The notes under the pieces: model-generated
What the model was told of the DNA's origin: nothing
The model's input: the letters and a program-made list of their open reading frames with translations, nothing else
Database searches by the model: none
Assembly (NCBI GenBank): GCA_963813715.1
Contig: CAWFAK010000009.1
Span: forward strand, 512,001-576,000
Length of the DNA: 64,000 nt
Direction: 5' to 3'
Source of the DNA: an uncultured Planctomycetaceae bacterium
GTDB lineage: Bacteria > Planctomycetota > Planctomycetia > Planctomycetales > Planctomycetaceae
Made by a program: the position numbers and the translations under genes
Shown: piece after piece, positions 8,194 to 16,464 of the stretch
Layout: each line of letters opens with the position of its first letter
Numbering within the stretch: the first letter of the stretch is position 1

Positions 8194-9159
8194 ATGCGCA
8201 GGCGAGTTGGTTTCACCCTGATCGAACTGTTGGTCGTCATCGCGATTATCGCCGTGCTGATCTCGCTGCTCTTGCCGGCAGTGCAGGCGGCCCGCGAAGC
8301 CGCGCGACGGACGCAGTGTCGCAACAACATCAAGCAGTTCGTGCTGGCGCTGCACAACTATCACGAAACCAACCACATGCTGCCGCCCGGCCACCTGGAA
8401 ACGGGCATGGAGAATCCGCTCCCCGGACAGCCCTCGGGGCAGCACCAGATCGGCTGGTTGACCTACATCTTGCCGCAGTTGGAGCAGCAGGCGCTCTACA
8501 AGATGATTCCGTTCAACGAAATCAATTTCAGCCTCAACATCAACAAGAACACGTACTTTCTTCCGGCGGCCGGACACGTGGTCGGCATGTTCATTTGCCC
8601 CAGCGATCCGATGAAGCTCGTGAACCTGGCGACGGCGCCCGCCAACTACATGGCCAATCAAGGGATCAATTGCATGTGCGAGTTCAGCACGTGCAGCGGC
8701 GTCTTCGGGCACAGCACGTTCACCAAGTTTGCCTGGATCACCGACGGCCTCTCCACGACGATCGCCGTCAGCGAAACGCTGCGGGGAGACAACAACGTGG
8801 CCACGCTGGGTGACAACTACATCTCGACCAGCTCGACGTCGGTCAACGCGCAGGACGTAACCACCTGCCAGTCGCTCGCCCCGAATGCGTCGGACCGAGG
8901 CCTTTCGTGGATCGGCGGACAGCCGCAGTACAACATGTTCAGCACCAATCGCGTGCCGAACGACGTGTTGTACGACTGCCGAGCCCCGAACTACGGCTGC
9001 ACGAACATGGCGGCCCGCAGCGCGCATCCAATGGGCGTGGTCGTCGGCATGTGCGACGGCTCGGTGCAGTTCATGTCCCAAAACATCGACCTAACAACTT
9101 ATCAGGCGCTGGGCACCCGCAGCGGCGGCGAAATGGTCAACGCGAACAACGGCGATTAG
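8194..9159 (+). CDS. DUF1559 protein with prepilin-type N-terminal cleavage/methylation motif
   Basis: GFTLIELLVVIAIIAVLISLLLPAVQAAREAARR, FICPSD, C-terminal H-X9-DG (HPMGVVVGMCDG). Confidence 0.96.
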   Translation: MRRRVGFTLIELLVVIAIIAVLISLLLPAVQAAREAARRTQCRNNIKQFVLALHNYHETNHMLPPGHLETGMENPLPGQPSGQHQIGWLTYILPQLEQQALYKMIPFNEINFSLNINKNTYFLPAAGHVVGMFICPSDPMKLVNLATAPANYMANQGINCMCEFSTCSGVFGHSTFTKFAWITDGLSTTIAVSETLRGDNNVATLGDNYISTSSTSVNAQDVTTCQSLAPNASDRGLSWIGGQPQYNMFSTNRVPNDVLYDCRAPNYGCTNMAARSAHPMGVVVGMCDGSVQFMSQNIDLTTYQALGTRSGGEMVNANNGD

Positions 9160-9192
9160 TAGGCAATCCCGTCGCAATTTCGAGTTGAGCAG

Positions 9193-9282
9193 GATTTTCA
9201 CCACAAAGACACGAAGGCACGAAGAATTCTGAAATTCTGTTAGGGATTTACTTAGTGCCTTTGTGTCTTTGTGGTGAAAATC
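9193..9282. repeat. 90-bp hairpin with octamer-repeat arms; possible bidirectional terminator
   Basis: GATTTTCAC-CACAAAGA-CACGAAGG-CACGAAG...CTTAGTG-CCTTTGTG-TCTTTGTG-GTGAAAATC between convergent genes. Confidence 0.85.
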
Positions 9283-9294
9283 TCCGTGTGCTTT

Positions 9295-12200
9295 TCAGTG
9301 GAAGTCGCGTGAGGAGACGCCCAGGTCGGCGATGCGTTTGGAGAGGTCGTCGAGGCGGTTGACCAGGATGTGGATCACGTTGTCCTGGCGCTGCAGGCGG
9401 CCGTGGGCCAGCATGGCGGTGGCCGTGCGGGCCGCGTGGTGATAGCGCTCCCAGACTTCGGGCCGCACGATCAGGTTGGCGAAGCCTGTTTCGTCTTCCA
9501 GCGTGACGAAGGTGATGCCGCTGGCCGTGCCCGGACGCTGCCGCATCAACGTCAGTCCGGCGACTTTCACCGGCCGATCGATGGGCAGGATCGCCAGGTC
9601 GGACGCCTTGGCCACGCCCATCCGCTCGAGGCCGGCCCGCAAGAATTTCATCGGATGGTCCTTGAGCGACAACCCCGTCGCCCGATAGTCGTCCACGACT
9701 TCTGCCAAGGGCGAAGCCGCCGGCAACGCGACGGCCGGCTCTTCATTGAGTCCAAAGTCCAAGGTCCAAGGTCCAAGGTCGGACGATTCCGAAGATGGGG
9801 TGGCGGTCTTTGACTTTGGACTTTGGACTTTGGACTTTGGCATACTGTTCTGCGCCGGCAGCGATTTCCACAAAGCCCGTCGGCGGCCCACCGTCAACGA
9901 GCCAAAGGCATCGGCCTGCGAGAGCCGGGCTAAGACCGCGCTGCTCAGTCGCGTGCGACGGGCAAAATTCTCGAACGAAACAAACGGCCCGTCCGCCCGC
10001 CGCTCGCAGATCACGTCGACCTGCGCTTGCGACAATCCCTTCACCAGGCGGAAGCCGAGGCGTAAGGCTAAGTCCAAGGTCCAAGGTCCAAAGTCCAAGG
10101 TCAGGAAATCGGAAGACACCCCATCGCGCCGACTTTGGACTTTGGACTTTGGACTTTGGACTGCTTCTTCCCGACTTTGGACTTTTTCCAGCGTCGCGTC
10201 CCATTCGCTGTGGTTGACGTCGACCGGGCGGATTTCGACGCCGTGGTCGCGGGCGTTGGCGACGAGCTGGGCCACGGCATAAAAACCCATCGGCTGGCTG
10301 TTGAGCAGGGCGGCCGCGAAGACGGCCGGCTCGTAGCGCTTGATCCAGGCCGACGCGTAAACCAACAGGGCAAAACTGGCCGCGTGCGATTCGGGAAAGC
10401 CATATTCGCCGAAACCGCGAATCTGGTTGAACAGCCGCTCGGCGAAATCGTCCGAATAGCCGTTCTTGGCCATTCCTGTGAGGAGTTTGTCGCGAAAACG
10501 ATCCATTTCTCCGGTTTTGCGCCAAGCTCCCATGGCGCGACGGAGTTGGTCGGCTTCTCCCGGCGTGAAACCACCGGCGATCACCGCCAACTTCATCGCC
10601 TGCTCTTGAAACAGCGGGACGCCGAGAGTTTTTACCAGCACACTCTTGATTCGCTCGTCGGGATAATCGACCGGTTCCTCTCTCGCTCGCCTCCTCAAAT
10701 AAGGATGAACCATATCCCCTTGGATGGGACCTGGGCGGACGATGGCGACTTCAATCACCAGGTCATAAAAATCCTTCGGCTTAAGCCGCGGCAGCATGGC
10801 CATCTGAGCGCGGCTCTCGATTTGGAACACGCCCATGGTGTCGGCGCGCTGAATCATGCGATACACCTCCGGGTCTTCGGCGGGGACAGTCGCCAGCGTC
10901 AGTTTGCGACCCCGATGTTTGTGGATCAGGTCAAAACCTTTGCGGATCGCCGTCAGCATTCCGAGCGCCAGGCAATCGACCTTGAGGATGCCGAGGCTAT
11001 CCAGGTCGTCCTTGTCCCATTCGATCACCGTGCGGCCGGGCATCGAGGCGTTTTCGATCGGCACGACTTCGCACAAAGGCTTTTGCGTCAGCACCATTCC
11101 GCCGACATGCTGCGAGAGATGTCGCGGAAAGCCGAGCACCTGCTGGACCAGGCTATTTAATTGCCTGGCTCGTCGGGCACGCGGATTGAAGCCCGATTCA
11201 CGGAAGCGGCCGGCGAGCTTTTCGCATTCGTTGTAGTTCTCGAGATTCTTGGCCAGCACGTCGACCTCTTCCAGTGAGTAGCCGAGTGCTTTCCCCACGT
11301 CGCGAACGGCCGAGCGCGGCCGATAGCTGATCACCGTGGCGGTCATCCCCGCGCGGTCGCGGCCGTATTTGTCGTAGACGTACTGGATGACTTCTTCGCG
11401 GCGCTCGTGCTCGAAATCGATGTCGATGTCCGGCGCTTCGTCGCGCTCTTTGCTCACGAACCGCTCGAACAGGAGATCGATCTTGACCGGATCGACCGAA
11501 GTCACGCCCAGGCAGTAACAGATGACCGAGTTCGCCGCCGAGCCGCGCCCTGACACAGGATGTCTCGGCCCCGCGCAAACTTCACCAGGTCCCAGACGGT
11601 GAGAAAGTAAGCCTCGTACCGCACCTCTTCGACCAGCTTGAGTTCGTATTCCAGCATTCCGCGGACCTTGTGCGGAATTCCGTCGGGGTAACGCTCCTGT
11701 GCTCCTTGCCACACCAGTCGCGACAGGTGCTCGATCGGCGTGAGGCCGGTCGGGCACAGTTCCTCTGGATATTCATAGCGCAGCTCGTCGAGCGAGAACG
11801 TTGCAGCGATCGGCCAGCTCGACCGTGCGCGACACGGCTTCCGGGCAATCGGCAAACAGCCGCCGCATTTCGGCGGGAGATTTGAGATGCCGCTCGGCGT
11901 TGGGGAATCGCCGATGCCCCAGCTCGGCGACCGTTGTGCCATGACGAACGGCCGTCAGCACGTCCTGCAGCGGCTGGCGGGACGGATCGTGATAGTGGAC
12001 GTCGTTGGCCGCCACGAGCGGCAAGCCGATGCTGCCGGGCCACGTGCCATCAGCGTGTTGCAGACGCAAACGATCGTCGGCTCCGCAGAAGAGTTCGGCC
12101 AGCAAGTGACACCGCTCGCCGAACGACGTCGCGATAAAGTGGCAGCGAGCGTTCGACCGCTTCTTCGTCGCTGCCTTCGGGAAGCCGGACGCAGGCCAGA

Positions 12201-12640
12201 AGTCCGTCGGCGAACTCGGCCACGTCGGCGAAAGTCAGCCGGCAAGTCGCCCTTTTCCGCCTGGCGGCGGCCGCGGGTGATCAACTGCGACAAGCGGCCG
12301 TAAGCGGCCCGGTCGGTGGCGAGGAGCACGACGGGGGCGCATCGTCGGGAGTGATCTCCGCTCCGATCAGCAGTTTCAGGCCGACTTCTTTGGCCGCGAC
12401 GTGTGCCGCGCACGACGCCGGCCACGCTGTTCAAATCCGTGATCGCCAGCGCCCGACAGCCGCAGCTCGGCGGCCCGCTGCACCAATTCGTCGGGATGCG
12501 AGGCCCCTTCAAGAAAACAGAAATTCGTTTTGCAGTGCAGCTCGGCGTAAGGAAATGCCGGCTCGCGATCCGCGTCCGGGCTCGTCGGCCGGCGGCGTCA
12601 GCGGGGCACGGATCCGTTTTGGTGCAGGAGGATCGGGCAT
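9295..12640 (-). CDS. dnaE2: error-prone DNA polymerase DnaE2 (ImuC); several frameshifts in the 5' third
   Basis: YAELHCKTNF.FLEGASHPDEL (PHP), PDIDIDFEHERREE, FPRHLSQHVGG, GFPESHAASF, RQRPGTA, C-terminal SRDFH; downstream of imuA/imuB. Confidence 0.95.
9749..9840. repeat. heptamer-array hairpin A, in frame within dnaE2
   Basis: (GTCCAAR)x4, ~27-nt spacer, (CTTTGGA)x4; encodes PKSKVQSPKSK...DLGPWTLDFGL. Confidence 0.92.
10071..10185. repeat. heptamer-array hairpin B, in frame within dnaE2
   Basis: (GTCCAAR)x4, 28-nt spacer, (GACTTTG)x4, plus a detached partial arm at 10173-10185. Confidence 0.92.
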
Positions 12641-12646
12641 CGTTCG

Positions 12647-12787
12647 GGCGAGCGGCAGGTGTCAGCCTGCCGGTTCTTTGGGTTTTCAGAGAGCTGGACC
12701 GGCTGACACGGAACAAAAAACAAACAGACAGAACAGAACAGCATGAAAAAAACAGAAGAACCGGCGGGCTGACACCCGCCGCTCGCC
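12647..12787. repeat. REP doublet (family 2) between imuB and dnaE2
   Basis: GGCGAGCGGCAGGTGTCAGCCTGCCGGTTCT and inverted AGAACCGGCGGGCTGACACCCGCCGCTCGCC with an A-rich spacer; third copy at 38643. Confidence 0.88.
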
Positions 12788-12801
12788 GGGTCAAATTCGC
12801 A

Positions 12802-14323
12802 TCAAAATTCTCCATGAACGAACCACGATCCTTCGTCTCGGGCGTGGAACAACCACAGCCGTTGGCCATCTTCAGTGTCGGCCCGGAAGTAGTCACGGTG
12901 GACGGCGGGGAAACGCCACCAGCCGGTCTCGATTCGTTCCGGGCCTTCGCAGTGCACAATGAGTTGATCGCGATCGGCCCAGTGCAGGCGAATGGGAGGT
13001 CCGTGAGGGACGACCGAAAAAACCTCCACCGGCACCGGCTCGGGAAACAGCCGCAACGGCCGCCGTGGCAGCGATTCGCGAACGAAAGAGCCGCGCACGA
13101 AGTAAGCGGTCTTTTGTTCTTCTTGTTCCTGAGCCGAACGACGGGCACGATGCAGCCGCTTCGTTGTCGGCGAGTCTTTTAAAGGAGAAGTTTGCTCCGC
13201 CAGGGTCGCGTACTCGACGGCCCGCTCGGGCTGATAATCGGGAGCCAGGCGCGGACAGAGCACGGCTCGCGGGCCGAGACGATTGCTCAACCGGTTGAGG
13301 AGCGAATCGAGATCCCGGCGGGCGTGGCGATGTTCGGCCGACTCGAACAGGGCCGACTGGTCGGCATCCAGAGGCGCGGTGCGGACCACGCGCAGCGTCG
13401 CGCCGGCCAATCGACCACGCAGCTGCACACGCTCCAGCTGCAGCCGCAGCAGTTCCCGCAGCCGCTTGGAATCGAGGCTGGGGCGAACCAGGCCGACGGT
13501 GAATCGCGTCGGCTCGTGGCCGGAAACGGTCAGCTCGATGTCGAGCTGCAGAATGCCGGCGTTGCGCCGTTCGAGCGGTTTCATCACCCGTTCGAGCAGA
13601 CGCTGCAAGATGATTTCGATCGCCGCCCGGTTTTCGAGCGGCGGCTCGCAGCCATACGCGGCTTCGATCGGCTCTTCCGGCCGCTCGGGAACGAGAGGCT
13701 CGGGAATTTCTCCCAGCGCCTGATCGAGGCGTCGCAAAATTTCCGGACCGAACCGGGAGGGCAGCGTTTCCCGCGGCAGGGCGGCGACGTGGCCGATGGT
13801 CGACAGTCCCAGGGAGTGCAGCACTTCCGCGACATTCGCGGAGATCCGCAAAGCCTCGACCGGCAGCCGGGCTCAGCGCCTGCGCCGAACGACCGGGAAG
13901 CACGATCAGCGGACCGTTCGCCGTGCGCGTCACCGCCCAGGCCGCGCCGATGGTGTCGGCCACGGCCGCGCGGGCGAGGAATCCCCAACCTCGAAAGTCG
14001 GCCACCACCTGCCGCACCATCCGCGGTTCGCCGCCGAAGAGATGCGCGCCGCCGGTGATATCTAAGAAGAGCGAAGCGGGAGTTTCCGACTCTTCGAGGC
14101 CGACGAGCGGACTGTAGCGACGGCAGCGATGAGCCAGGGAACGGAGGAGTCCAAGGTCCAAAGTCCCAGGTCCAAGGTCGGGAGATTCAGACGCTGTCGT
14201 GTCAGTCTTTGACTTTGGACTTTGGACCTTCGACCTTGGACCCGCTTGTTCGTCAGGCGCGAGCCCGCTTGGGCACGGTGGCTGGAGACGTTGGAGCAAT
14301 CGGACGCACAGTATTCGTCGCAT
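12802..14323 (-). CDS. imuB: Y-family polymerase-like protein ImuB (frameshift near 13870)
   Basis: RYSPLVG, LDITGGAHLFGGE, AVADTIGAAWA, GPERIETGWW, RDYF, WFVHGEF; between imuA and dnaE2. Confidence 0.92.
14148..14242. repeat. heptamer-array hairpin C, in frame within imuB
   Basis: (GTCCAAG-like)x4, ~28-nt spacer, (CTTTGGA/CCTTGGA)x4-5; encodes PRSKVQSPKSK...DLGPGTLDLGL. Confidence 0.9.
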
Positions 14324-15182
14324 CGTCGTATTCCAAGAGAGCGAACCTTTCGCCGGCTGCTCCTCGTCGGCAACGAAGGACTTCGACACGCCAACGCCGT
14401 GCGGACGATGAGTCTCCCTCGCCCATCGCCTCGATCCCGAGTCGCACGTCGCTCCAAGAGGGCTCGCCCCGCGCGGTCGGGGGGCGAATCAAAAAACCGA
14501 GACCGCCGCCGCGCTCGACCGAGAGCTGCAAGCGGCGGAAGACCCGCGCGGAGAGTTTTTGTAGGCGACAGAAGGTGACGGCCACGCCCCGCGAGGCCAG
14601 CGCCTGCTCGAGGGCCCACAAAGTTTCCACACTGGCCGCGGCCGGACTTTTCGACCGCTTCGCTGCTGCGCGCTTTGCTGGTGCGCTCTCTGTGCCTGCG
14701 CCGTGCCCCGCGGCTTTGCCCGGGCGGACGACGATCAGCCGCTCCAGGTCGATTCCCAGGGCGGCCGCCGCGGGAGGATACAGGCTCTCTTCGTCGTCGA
14801 TCACGATCAGCACCCGGTCTTCGCCGAGAGCGGCGCGGGCGGCCAGGAGCGCGAGCTGATCGGCCGAACCTTTTCCCGCCACCCACTCGATGAGCGTTCC
14901 CGCGCGAAAGCCGGCGTCGGGCAGGAGGCGATCGAGCGTTTCGATGCCGCTGGAAATTGTGTCGCCAGTCCCGCGAACCGGATGTGAACCGCGCTCCAGT
15001 TTTTGCAGCTGATCCGCCAACCGCCCCAGCGTGAGCGTCCGCGCGAGGGCCGGGTCGCTCTCCACTAAACTGTCCAGTGAGCCGCGCGGTGTGGAATCGG
15101 TGCGCGGTGCGGAGGGGCCAGCCGCCTGGGGCGCGCCTCCGGTAACGCAGTCGATCGCTCGTAGGGGTGAGTTGTCCGTCAT
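14253..15182 (-). CDS. imuA: ImuA-like RecA/SulA-family translesion synthesis accessory protein
   Basis: SSGIETLDRLLP.AGF..GTLIEW, YPPA, LWALEQAL, RRLQL; first gene of the cassette. Confidence 0.88.
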   Translation of the reverse strand: MTDNSPLRAIDCVTGGAPQAAGPSAPRTDSTPRGSLDSLVESDPALARTLTLGRLADQLQKLERGSHPVRGTGDTISSGIETLDRLLPDAGFRAGTLIEWVAGKGSADQLALLAARAALGEDRVLIVIDDEESLYPPAAAALGIDLERLIVVRPGKAAGHGAGTESAPAKRAAAKRSKSPAAASVETLWALEQALASRGVAVTFCRLQKLSARVFRRLQLSVERGGGLGFLIRPPTARGEPSWSDVRLGIEAMGEGDSSSARRWRVEVLRCRRGAAGERFALLEYDDATNTVRPIAPTSPATVPKRARA

Positions 15183-15188
15183 AACATT

Positions 15189-15217
15189 ATGTATACATTT
15201 GTATCGTACTGCGTCAA
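15189..15217 (-). promoter_or_regulatory. candidate sigma-70 promoter of imuA overlapped by palindromes (possible repressor operator)
   Basis: Minus strand TTGACG-N16-TATACA-N7-ATG; palindromes ATGTATACAT (15189-15198) and TACA-TT-TGTA (15194-15203). Confidence 0.55.
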
Positions 15218-15285
15218 GCCAGAAAATGAGTGGTTTTTTTGCGGAAATTTTCGGCGGGGGGCGGCTCCGTAGGGCAAGCTGCCAG

Positions 15286-15545
15286 TGTTGAGACCGGACA
15301 CCCCTCCGCGTTCCTGTCTCGCAGATCAATGCGGGTAATCTTCTGCCAGCAATAAAACACCTGCCAGACTCCCTCGGTCGTCGTCGGCCGAAGAGCGACG
15401 GCTTCGCCCGCAAATGCCTCGCTGATTTTGATCACCTGTCCCCGAAAACTCAGTTGCCCCACGGGATTCACCTTGCGGACTTCGTCGCCCTCGTCGTATT
15501 CGATCGGCGGAAGATGCTCCGGAAACTCACGTCGGCTGACCGCGT
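15286..15545 (-). mobile_element. IS481-family remnant (3' end of transposase and terminal TGT/ACA end)
   Basis: Minus strand reads FPEHLPPIEYDEGDEVRKV..GQLSFRG...SEAFAGEAVALRP...WQVFY...IDL; ends GTGTCCGGTCTCAACA; catalytic part absent. Confidence 0.8.
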
Positions 15546-15581
15546 CGCTCTACGGAGCGCCTCGGTCACCCGACGCCGGGT

Positions 15582-15768
15582 AAGCTGGCACAGTACTTCC
15601 CAAATTCCGCTTTTCACAAACCCTTAGAGCCAGGGCTGAGCTGCGAGTTTTCTGCAAGAAAAGCAGGTAAGAATCGGACCGCGCGTCGATCTTGGATTTC
15701 GCTACTGCCGGTTGAGTTAGGGGTTCTGGACGAAAGAAGAGTGTGATTTGGAAGTACTGTGGCAGCTT
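15582..15768. mobile_element. MITE-like element, 187 bp, with ~23-bp terminal inverted repeats
   Basis: AAGCTGGCACAGTACTTCCCAAAT / ATTTGGAAGTACTGTGGCAGCTT (one mismatch, one indel); lower-GC non-coding interior. Confidence 0.65.
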
Positions 15769-15921
15769 GTCCTACGGAAGCGGTGACCGGCCGCGGACCA
15801 ACTGGAAAACGCGGGCGGGCTCTGTTAGGTTACGGAGCTTGAAAACCGGCGATCGTAAACGCCAAGCGTGCGACGCAAATCGTGCTCTCTTGGGCACTTA
15901 AGGAAGGCGATTGTGAGTCTC

Positions 15922-16464
15922 GTGCTCGAAGCAAAACCCCAGGCGATTTCCGGTGTCAGTGCGGGAACGGAAGCCGAGATTATGACGGCCTATCCGACGC
16001 TGGCGGCGACCGGCTTGGGTCGGGCCATCGGCAGCCTGTGCGATGCGGTGCCGCTGAAGACGTACGGCATTCCCTGGTGGCGGATGATGATTGCCGCCGT
16101 GCTGGCACTGGTGGTGGTGCCGATCGCGGGGACGATCGGGCTGATTTTGTATTTCGTCACCAAGATGACGGGACAGCGGTTCGTGCTGACCAATCGCGCC
16201 TTGCAGGTGCGGCAGATGATCGGCGTGCGGCTCAACTCGCAGGCGTCGCTGTCGGACATCAAAAGCATCGACATTCAGGAGTTGCCCGGGCAGGCCTTCT
16301 ACAAGGCGGCCGACCTCCTCGTGAAGGGGGGCGACGGCAAAACGCTGGTGCGGCTGGAAGGCGTGCAACGCCCCGCCGTATTCCGCCAAACGATCCTGGA
16401 AGCCCGCGACGCGCGGCAGCAGGTCGAAGAATCGCTGAAGGCGATCCAGTCGCGGAAGATCTGA
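15922..16464 (+). CDS. membrane protein with bacterial PH (bPH_2-like) domain
   Basis: TM hairpin followed by RFVLTNRAL...LSDIKSIDI...DL..; start uncertain (15868-15982). Confidence 0.75.
   Translation: MLEAKPQAISGVSAGTEAEIMTAYPTLAATGLGRAIGSLCDAVPLKTYGIPWWRMMIAAVLALVVVPIAGTIGLILYFVTKMTGQRFVLTNRALQVRQMIGVRLNSQASLSDIKSIDIQELPGQAFYKAADLLVKGGDGKTLVRLEGVQRPAVFRQTILEARDARQQVEESLKAIQSRKI

Follow-up and report, generated by a model that had tools for sequence, protein, structure and literature searches.

Heptamer-array hairpins in frame in planctomycete imuB and dnaE2 belong to a dispersed, mostly non-coding family with a likely link to a four-helix-bundle gene cassette

The window analysed here is a stretch of 64,000 nt from the genome of an uncultured Planctomycetaceae bacterium (genome G000; the comparison genomes are G002-G011 and others, and positions refer to the window unless a contig is named). 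It carries, in frame within the mutagenesis genes dnaE2 and imuB, three hairpins, A, B and C, each with some four GTCCAAR units on one side of a spacer and some four YTTGGAC units on the other. We propose, with a probability of roughly 0.55, that these are in-frame copies of a genus-wide and mostly non-coding family, the gene-less offspring of a cassette built around a PF05635 gene, spread by homology-guided copying without target duplication and translated as loops. The observations behind this proposal include the following: the family exists, a gene-bearing form of it is present in sister genomes, and gene-bearing and gene-less alleles are found at one and the same orthologous site. As to their effect on the host proteins, the hairpins are very probably passengers that are both translated and tolerated.

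At the sequence level the three elements lie where a first-pass annotation of the window had placed them, all in frame, two in dnaE2 and one in imuB (ATG at 14323), and the window holds no further copy: the 15 matches to a three-unit pattern all fall inside A, B and C, with none in 100 shuffles. Hairpin A (9749..9842; no strand is assigned to any of the three) has four GTCCAAR units, a spacer at 9781-9811 and four to five complementary units; it lies where dnaE2 links the HhH domain to the OB domain, in place of the motif QKVMPLF. Hairpin B (10071..10185) has four units on each side of a spacer at 10103-10130, with an additional arm remnant at 10173-10183, and sits in the HhH region of dnaE2, after WDATLE. 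Hairpin C (14148..14242; four units, a spacer at 14180-14210, then four to five units) belongs to the N-terminus of imuB, 10 nt downstream from the stop codon of imuA (14253). Counted between the inner GTC and the inner GAC, the spacer of B is 28 nt long, in agreement with the 27-28 nt given at first, while those of A and C measure 31 nt each. All three have folding z-scores of -5.1 to -8.7 relative to shuffles, on both strands; none is called by terminator or sigma-70 promoter prediction, and Rfam returns for 9000-16000 no match near the gathering score, only sub-threshold matches to miRNA hairpins. Both dnaE2 inserts are predicted by a structure model to be disordered (pLDDT, the per-residue confidence, about 50 against a mean of 78) inside a folded domain. 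The unit had been noted as free of stops in all six frames and hence tolerable in coding DNA; since 1180 of the 2340 heptamer classes (both strands) are stop-free likewise, stop-freeness is a filter rather than a design, and stop avoidance as a design feature was discarded.

The genome holding the window contains 70 GTCCAAR arrays at 54 loci, while 3 Mb of simulated sequence contain none, and the pattern occurs in 11/11 genomes of the genus and in 0/29 others of the class. The view of a dispersed hairpin family is thus borne out; that of a family mainly colonising proteins is not. Coding copies amount to 3 of the 54 loci, i.e. A, B and C themselves (internal coding by the codon model in the case of A and B only, C being assigned by alignment), to 2 of 37 analysable hairpins elsewhere in the genus (drawn from 40 regions, leaving aside the imu and phoU-upstream sites), and to 7 of 78 distinct metagenome copies, 42 of which were unclassifiable with a codon model trained on G000. 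Many of the other loci of G000 are intergenic or lie in non-coding mosaic repeat tracts. The order of the arms is fixed—left then right 24 times, right then left 0 times. Target duplication, raised at first as something to look for, is not supported, the flanking direct repeats of 75 elements being no commoner than in shuffled pairings. At two loci (G007:C290:9363-9507, and L174 in G011) the arms have grown to some 20 units, evidence that slippage has acted in addition to dispersal. The GTCCAAR word also occurs in at least 124 stretches in other phyla, often (in the 80 examined) as single arrays.

The first-pass annotation had anticipated longer copies whose arms enclose a four-helix-bundle gene, and these do exist: in G010, G006 and G011 GTCCAAR arms bracket PF05635/TIGR02436 genes. 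A PF05635 gene is present in 8 of 11 relatives, and at 9 of the 14 genus loci listed both arms were called by script, with words that differ. The association extends to the phylum, where a sample made of the best PF05635 match per genome gives inverted heptamer arms at 18 of 30 loci, against 0 of 55 shifted controls, plus octamer arms at five further loci. Alleles can be compared at the junction between phoU and PAP2. The gene-bearing form occupies it in G010 and G006, and G000 (C16, near 217,650) has a gene-less copy that shares the inner junction of G006; in G003 and G007 the junction holds another hairpin family. The PF05635 cassette is the likely parent of the gene-less hairpins. The phoU/PAP2 intergenic site as a whole shows five different occupants in seven genomes, and in the gap upstream of phoU a GTCCAAR hairpin has been gained and lost among genomes (L199-L204 and L214 for the two places together). 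Besides, one complete genome, G048, has 35 PF05635 matches, several of which score identically and contain internal stops, a pattern suggestive of a recent multiplication.

The parent would be small and selfish, a cassette in which inverted heptamer arms enclose the four-helix-bundle gene, and new copies would arise by homology-guided copying between arrays, through gene conversion or template switching, possibly by way of an RNA bound by the Avd-like protein; it is in this sense that we infer a mobility driven by PF05635. Within genes, copies would survive only in frame and at tolerant sites, and A, B and C would be translated as floppy loops. Signs of copying between arrays are found in the operon itself. 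The spacers of A and C, whose likeness had been noticed at first, are indeed mutual best matches among 22 hairpins (z 6.7); the pair ranks 13 of 231, all higher ranks being within one multi-copy subfamily. In the imuB copy of G010, the 14 nt beyond the right arm match exactly those that come after site A in dnaE2 of G003. Both features fit, as far as sequences can tell, an imprecise array-to-array copying inside the operon, which partly explains why the elements cluster in imuB-dnaE2. This clustering would reflect three insertion-tolerant sites and local copying between A and C, not a function.

The comparison of relatives indicates how these sites change. At site B, GTCCAAR hairpins are found in G000, G006, G007 and G011 with a remnant in G004, an unrelated CCCTC-type hairpin occupies the site in G002, G003 and G008, and the site is empty in G005 and G009. 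As G002 and G003 are separated from G000 by a synonymous distance (dS) of only 0.15-0.16, the turnover of occupants is fast. Filled and empty alleles had been expected and are both found; however, the empty ones within the genus are nested among filled ones on the dnaE2 tree, and thus probably are later deletions rather than sites preceding insertion. No orthologous allele examined breaks the frame, and a polymorphism at 9841 is an indel of 3 nt; only a translated insert would lead one to expect this. The start of site C coincides with the imuA stop or follows it directly; in G006, G009 and G010 the stop codon is itself made up of the arm's first bases. In ImuB of the genus (L190-L196; 14143-14323 in the window) about 70 N-terminal residues of the G020 protein are missing whether the hairpin is present or not, the frame being kept; we take these residues to be the fingers region.

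Beyond the genus, 120 DnaE2 homologues were collected with a query that contained the inserts, which favours close relatives. Of these, 38 of the 104 parsed homologues have periodic peptides of the hairpin type at site B (3/415 among shuffles), and 19 of 108 have them at site A (2/540 among shuffles); those of site B fall into 26 best-fit word classes, two of them variants of GTCCAAR. The same two loops of DnaE2 thus appear, on sequence grounds, to have been invaded repeatedly by unrelated 7-base words. Both had been described as variable loops, and this holds for site B but not for site A, where a conserved motif is replaced: the LF motif (QKVMPLF in the genus) is kept by 84 of 108 homologues and lost in G000, G002, G006 and G007. 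Six of the seven site-A proteins without PLF have LDF or EDF, and three that keep PLF together with a right arm have LDL, though these counts represent few independent lineages. The one pointer to a possible clamp binding by the repeat-encoded peptide is a weak HMMER alignment that pairs WTLDF with QLDLF of E. coli Pol III alpha, which we read as a clamp motif. A much wider scheme can be drawn from these data, in which PF05635 (Avd-like) proteins would drive transposase-free, RNA-templated mobile hairpins that underlie dispersed heptamer arrays as well as the intervening sequences of rRNA, the DnaE2 loops would record dozens of independent invasions, and the repeat-encoded (T)LDF of site A would have been co-opted for a lost, clamp-binding-like PLF. 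We consider this scheme speculative and, taken as a whole, unlikely.

Several points weigh against a PF05635 cassette as parent of the hairpins. No PF05635 gene was found in G000 (82.6% complete) despite its arrays, nor in G002, G003 and G007, which all bear arrays too, and we know of no catalytic role for PF05635. Closely related PF05635 proteins (L164, L165, L166) carry different words, so that a strict recognition of the word is doubtful; more generally the words follow the PF05635 protein tree only loosely, as judged by inspection and not by statistics. The phoU/PAP2 alleles fit the gain of a gene by an existing hairpin as well as its loss. Among 80 loci from other genomes no arm pair encloses a gene, and 0 of 146 neighbouring open reading frames (ORFs) is PF05635, a count restricted to the longest ORF on each side, so that short genes could escape. 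No clean pre-insertion allele was found, and thus the insertion step itself is unseen. Lastly, the word classes of the distant DnaE2 homologues were inferred from peptides, not from DNA, starting from a query itself carrying inserts.

Some of these points favour the most serious alternative, that host processes alone produce the hairpins: slippage would build an array, template switching would mirror it, gene conversion would copy it, and the four-helix-bundle gene would be a passenger that landed there. The lack of a PF05635 gene in G000 and in three array-bearing relatives, the change of words between close PF05635 proteins, and the presence of the GTCCAAR word in many phyla, often as single arrays, are all in line with it; so is the use of other hairpins by other mobile genes, for example IS110 in CCCTC hairpins. 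On the other hand, the fixed polarity of the arms (24 versus 0) is hard to reconcile with it, as is a single word shared genus-wide that gave no match in 29 further genomes of the class. The bracketing of 18 of 30 PF05635 genes, moreover, needs a tight link between gene and arms in either direction. We regard a purely host-made origin as possible but doubtful.

A control at the RNA level, where the stems would be RNase III sites or ribosome pauses tuning imuA-imuB-dnaE2 and other operons, seems to us rather improbable. Its best arguments are the stems of about 28-31 bp, similar to the RNase III-cut 28-bp stem of the Coxiella intervening sequence (IVS; PMC4990558), the location of 28 of the 36 classifiable metagenome copies between co-directional genes, and the position of C, which abuts the imuA stop in 7 of the 8 genus genomes examined, the eighth having lost C. 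Yet within a dS of 0.15 the sites lose their hairpin or receive an unrelated one, and the coding copies fold more weakly on the mRNA strand. The latter point needs some caution. In the window the elements show, on the mRNA strand, 8 A-C and 1 G-U opposed positions, so that the asymmetry first described (G-T wobbles on the template, A-C mismatches in the mRNA) holds there; it does not hold at every orthologous site, G006 reversing it at two sites, with 3 G-U and 1 A-C at its site B. Pair counts show no asymmetry in copies between co-directional genes (27 G-U, 23 A-C) and no significant one in coding copies (2 G-U, 7 A-C, p 0.18). With folding energies, a test which came after the pair counts and is one among several looks at the same data, the mRNA strand is the weaker in 8 and the stronger in 0 of 9 unrelated coding copies, versus 18 weaker and 20 stronger of 40 copies between co-directional genes (Fisher p 0.006); imu orthologues give 8 weaker and 3 stronger of 12. 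This looks like an avoidance of the stem in coding copies, a lead only, as the choice of amino acids in the loop could give the same signal, and comparing synonymous with non-synonymous positions did not separate selection on RNA from selection on amino acids.

The inserts might also be spliced out or bypassed in translation, leaving proteins free of them. With long stems and short loops, the flanks might come to lie side by side; but the frame kept in all examined alleles, with the 3-nt indel at 9841, argues otherwise, and so does a contig from an RNA library that spans C with the insert retained (RNA libraries are known here as contigs only, from which transcription cannot be read, and this contig may derive from DNA). 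No joint bypassing an element appears among the contig matches listed, and we find such skipping very improbable.

Scars left by an error-prone polymerase on its own operon, or an artefact of long-read assembly, might be suspected from the many single-base errors of the assembly and from the fact that imuB and dnaE2 hold the only internal coding copies of G000, but this is largely refuted and has hardly any likelihood left, the same word being present at 51 other loci and around PF05635 genes, and the elements being carried by independent Illumina contigs and by other genomes.

The support from sequencing that the arrays called for is at hand. The Illumina contigs, which come from public soil runs, bridge hairpin C and cover A and B as overlapping tiles. 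P0002 is an intact DnaE2 of 1111 aa, 98% identical over the searched region, with both inserts, and together with these contigs it rules out an assembly artefact as source of the hairpins. The contigs differ from the window by single-base indels where the frames of the latter break (11547, 11799, 12029, 13874 and others), and the breaks in dnaE2 and imuB look like assembly errors. DnaE2 is under purifying selection, with dN/dS (non-synonymous over synonymous rate) of 0.055-0.129 in conserved blocks, which rules out a decayed operon.

Compared with systems described elsewhere, the elements belong to none of the miniature transposable elements with inverted repeats (MITEs), IVSs or Rickettsia palindromic elements (RPEs), while resembling each in parts. 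Like MITEs they have terminal inverted repeats, although here the arms are tandem heptamers of variable number; target-site duplication is absent from the 75 elements, and no cognate transposase is found, the gene between the arms being PF05635. In the 23S rRNA IVS of Coxiella, an S23p ORF and heptamers accompany a stem of 28 bp (PMC4990558). With it our family shares a terminal stem of about 28 bp, a long stem whose loop holds a PF05635 ORF (in the sister genomes G006, G010 and G011, A, B and C being gene-less), tandem heptamers by the ORF and a sporadic distribution. It departs from it in lying outside the 23S rRNA precursor, in and between protein genes, in arms that are wholly heptameric, and in the predominance of gene-less copies, some in frame in proteins. 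Dispersed heptamer arrays of about four 7-bp units, often in inverted pairs, mostly intergenic and with a lineage-specific word, are what we find, and also what is reported for Xanthomonas and Nostoc (PMC4692102) and for Geobacter metallireducens (PMC2700814), but GTCCAAR is a different word and does not form G-quadruplexes. The arrays of Xanthomonas are 7-11% intragenic (PMC4692102), and in the available text of both papers the heptamer pairs are read as regulatory or structural, with no partner gene named. RPEs are in-frame palindromes in unrelated genes, thought to be compatible with the fold (PMC10969869), and the likeness in this respect is clear; RPEs are however about 150 bp long, with a conserved peptide and nearly half of the copies coding, so that elements of about 90 bp with tandem-repeat arms, a freely varying spacer and less than one copy in ten coding are set apart by description. 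As regards REP/REPIN elements, whose mark is a Y1 (RAYT) transposase between cognate repeats, one of the 146 neighbouring ORFs scanned in other genomes is a Y1_Tnp. PF05635 itself resembles Avd (PMC10053308). Open texts, subscription papers and supplements aside, yielded neither PF05635 with inverted heptamer arms outside rRNA, on which the supplements of PMC2700814 may bear, nor hairpin inserts or hot spots in DnaE2, and the accessible parts of PMC8700078, PMC10392669, PMC6749651 and PMC12926913 contain nothing direct on the cassette or on DnaE2 inserts.

Neither the heptamer arrays nor the four-helix-bundle (IVS) protein has gained an agreed role in the decades over which they have been known. 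Found together here as one cassette, which has alleles with and without the gene at a single site, they make it possible to ask concretely if the protein binds its hairpin or spreads it. Cyanobacterial short tandemly repeated repetitive (STRR) arrays and small dispersed repeats are also said to consist of heptamers placed near gene ends and inside genes, with small elements nested in one another; the placement would be similar, in another phylum and with other words. The hairpins of the window itself are probably tolerated passengers. The DnaE2 loops illustrate that length variation of planctomycete proteins can arise by repeated hairpin capture, even at the cost of a conserved motif.

The host genes all lie on the minus strand. 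dnaE2 (9295..12640), with single-base frame breaks here but intact in the Illumina contigs and P0002, encodes a C-family polymerase whose homologues are annotated as error-prone DNA polymerase of Planctomycetaceae. The gene at 12802..14323, which overlaps the end of imuA, has a frame break at 13874 and encodes about 70 native N-terminal residues fewer than G020, is presumably imuB, from gene order and features of the family; a Pfam search of its product gave no match. imuA (14253..15413) has a weak RecA-like match and an uncertain start, and its stop codon abuts hairpin C. Between imuB and dnaE2 lies an inverted repeat resembling repetitive extragenic palindromes (REPs), with AACAG-rich filler (12650..12785, no strand assigned), of a family unrelated to the GTCCAAR hairpins; both its arms score terminator-like, and about 30 similar matches occur genome-wide.

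Two other genes were considered as partners of the GTCCAAR arms and rejected. The single GxxExxY (PF13366) gene of G000, L039 (C5:1,218,997-1,219,341), is flanked by a different repeat; it has inverted AACAGGAG-type repeats of its own, a second gene-in-hairpin family. IS110 genes adjoin 4 of the 9 repeat-rich tracts of G000 examined, but the IS110 copies end inside CCCTC hairpins, not GTCCAAR arms. There are nine of them in G000, of about 1.25 kb and 92-99% alike to the query copy (C16 near 500,650, 502,500 and 393,480; C5 near 1,086,600, 1,120,900, 1,206,700 and 1,208,200; C8 near 69,250; C17 near 775,700), and most share one insertion position inside CCCTC-type hairpins, the family that also fills site B of dnaE2 in G002, G003 and G008. 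IS621 inserts in REPs, a behaviour to which that of IS110 in CCCTC hairpins can be likened. Finally, G000 has long non-coding mosaics similar to bacterial interspersed mosaic elements (e.g. C5:1,206,100-1,206,700 and C17:159,300-160,000), composed of GGGACGGGACAC units (217 matches) and CCCTC hairpins (36), and holding in addition a GTCCAAR subfamily with a conserved 23-nt spacer.

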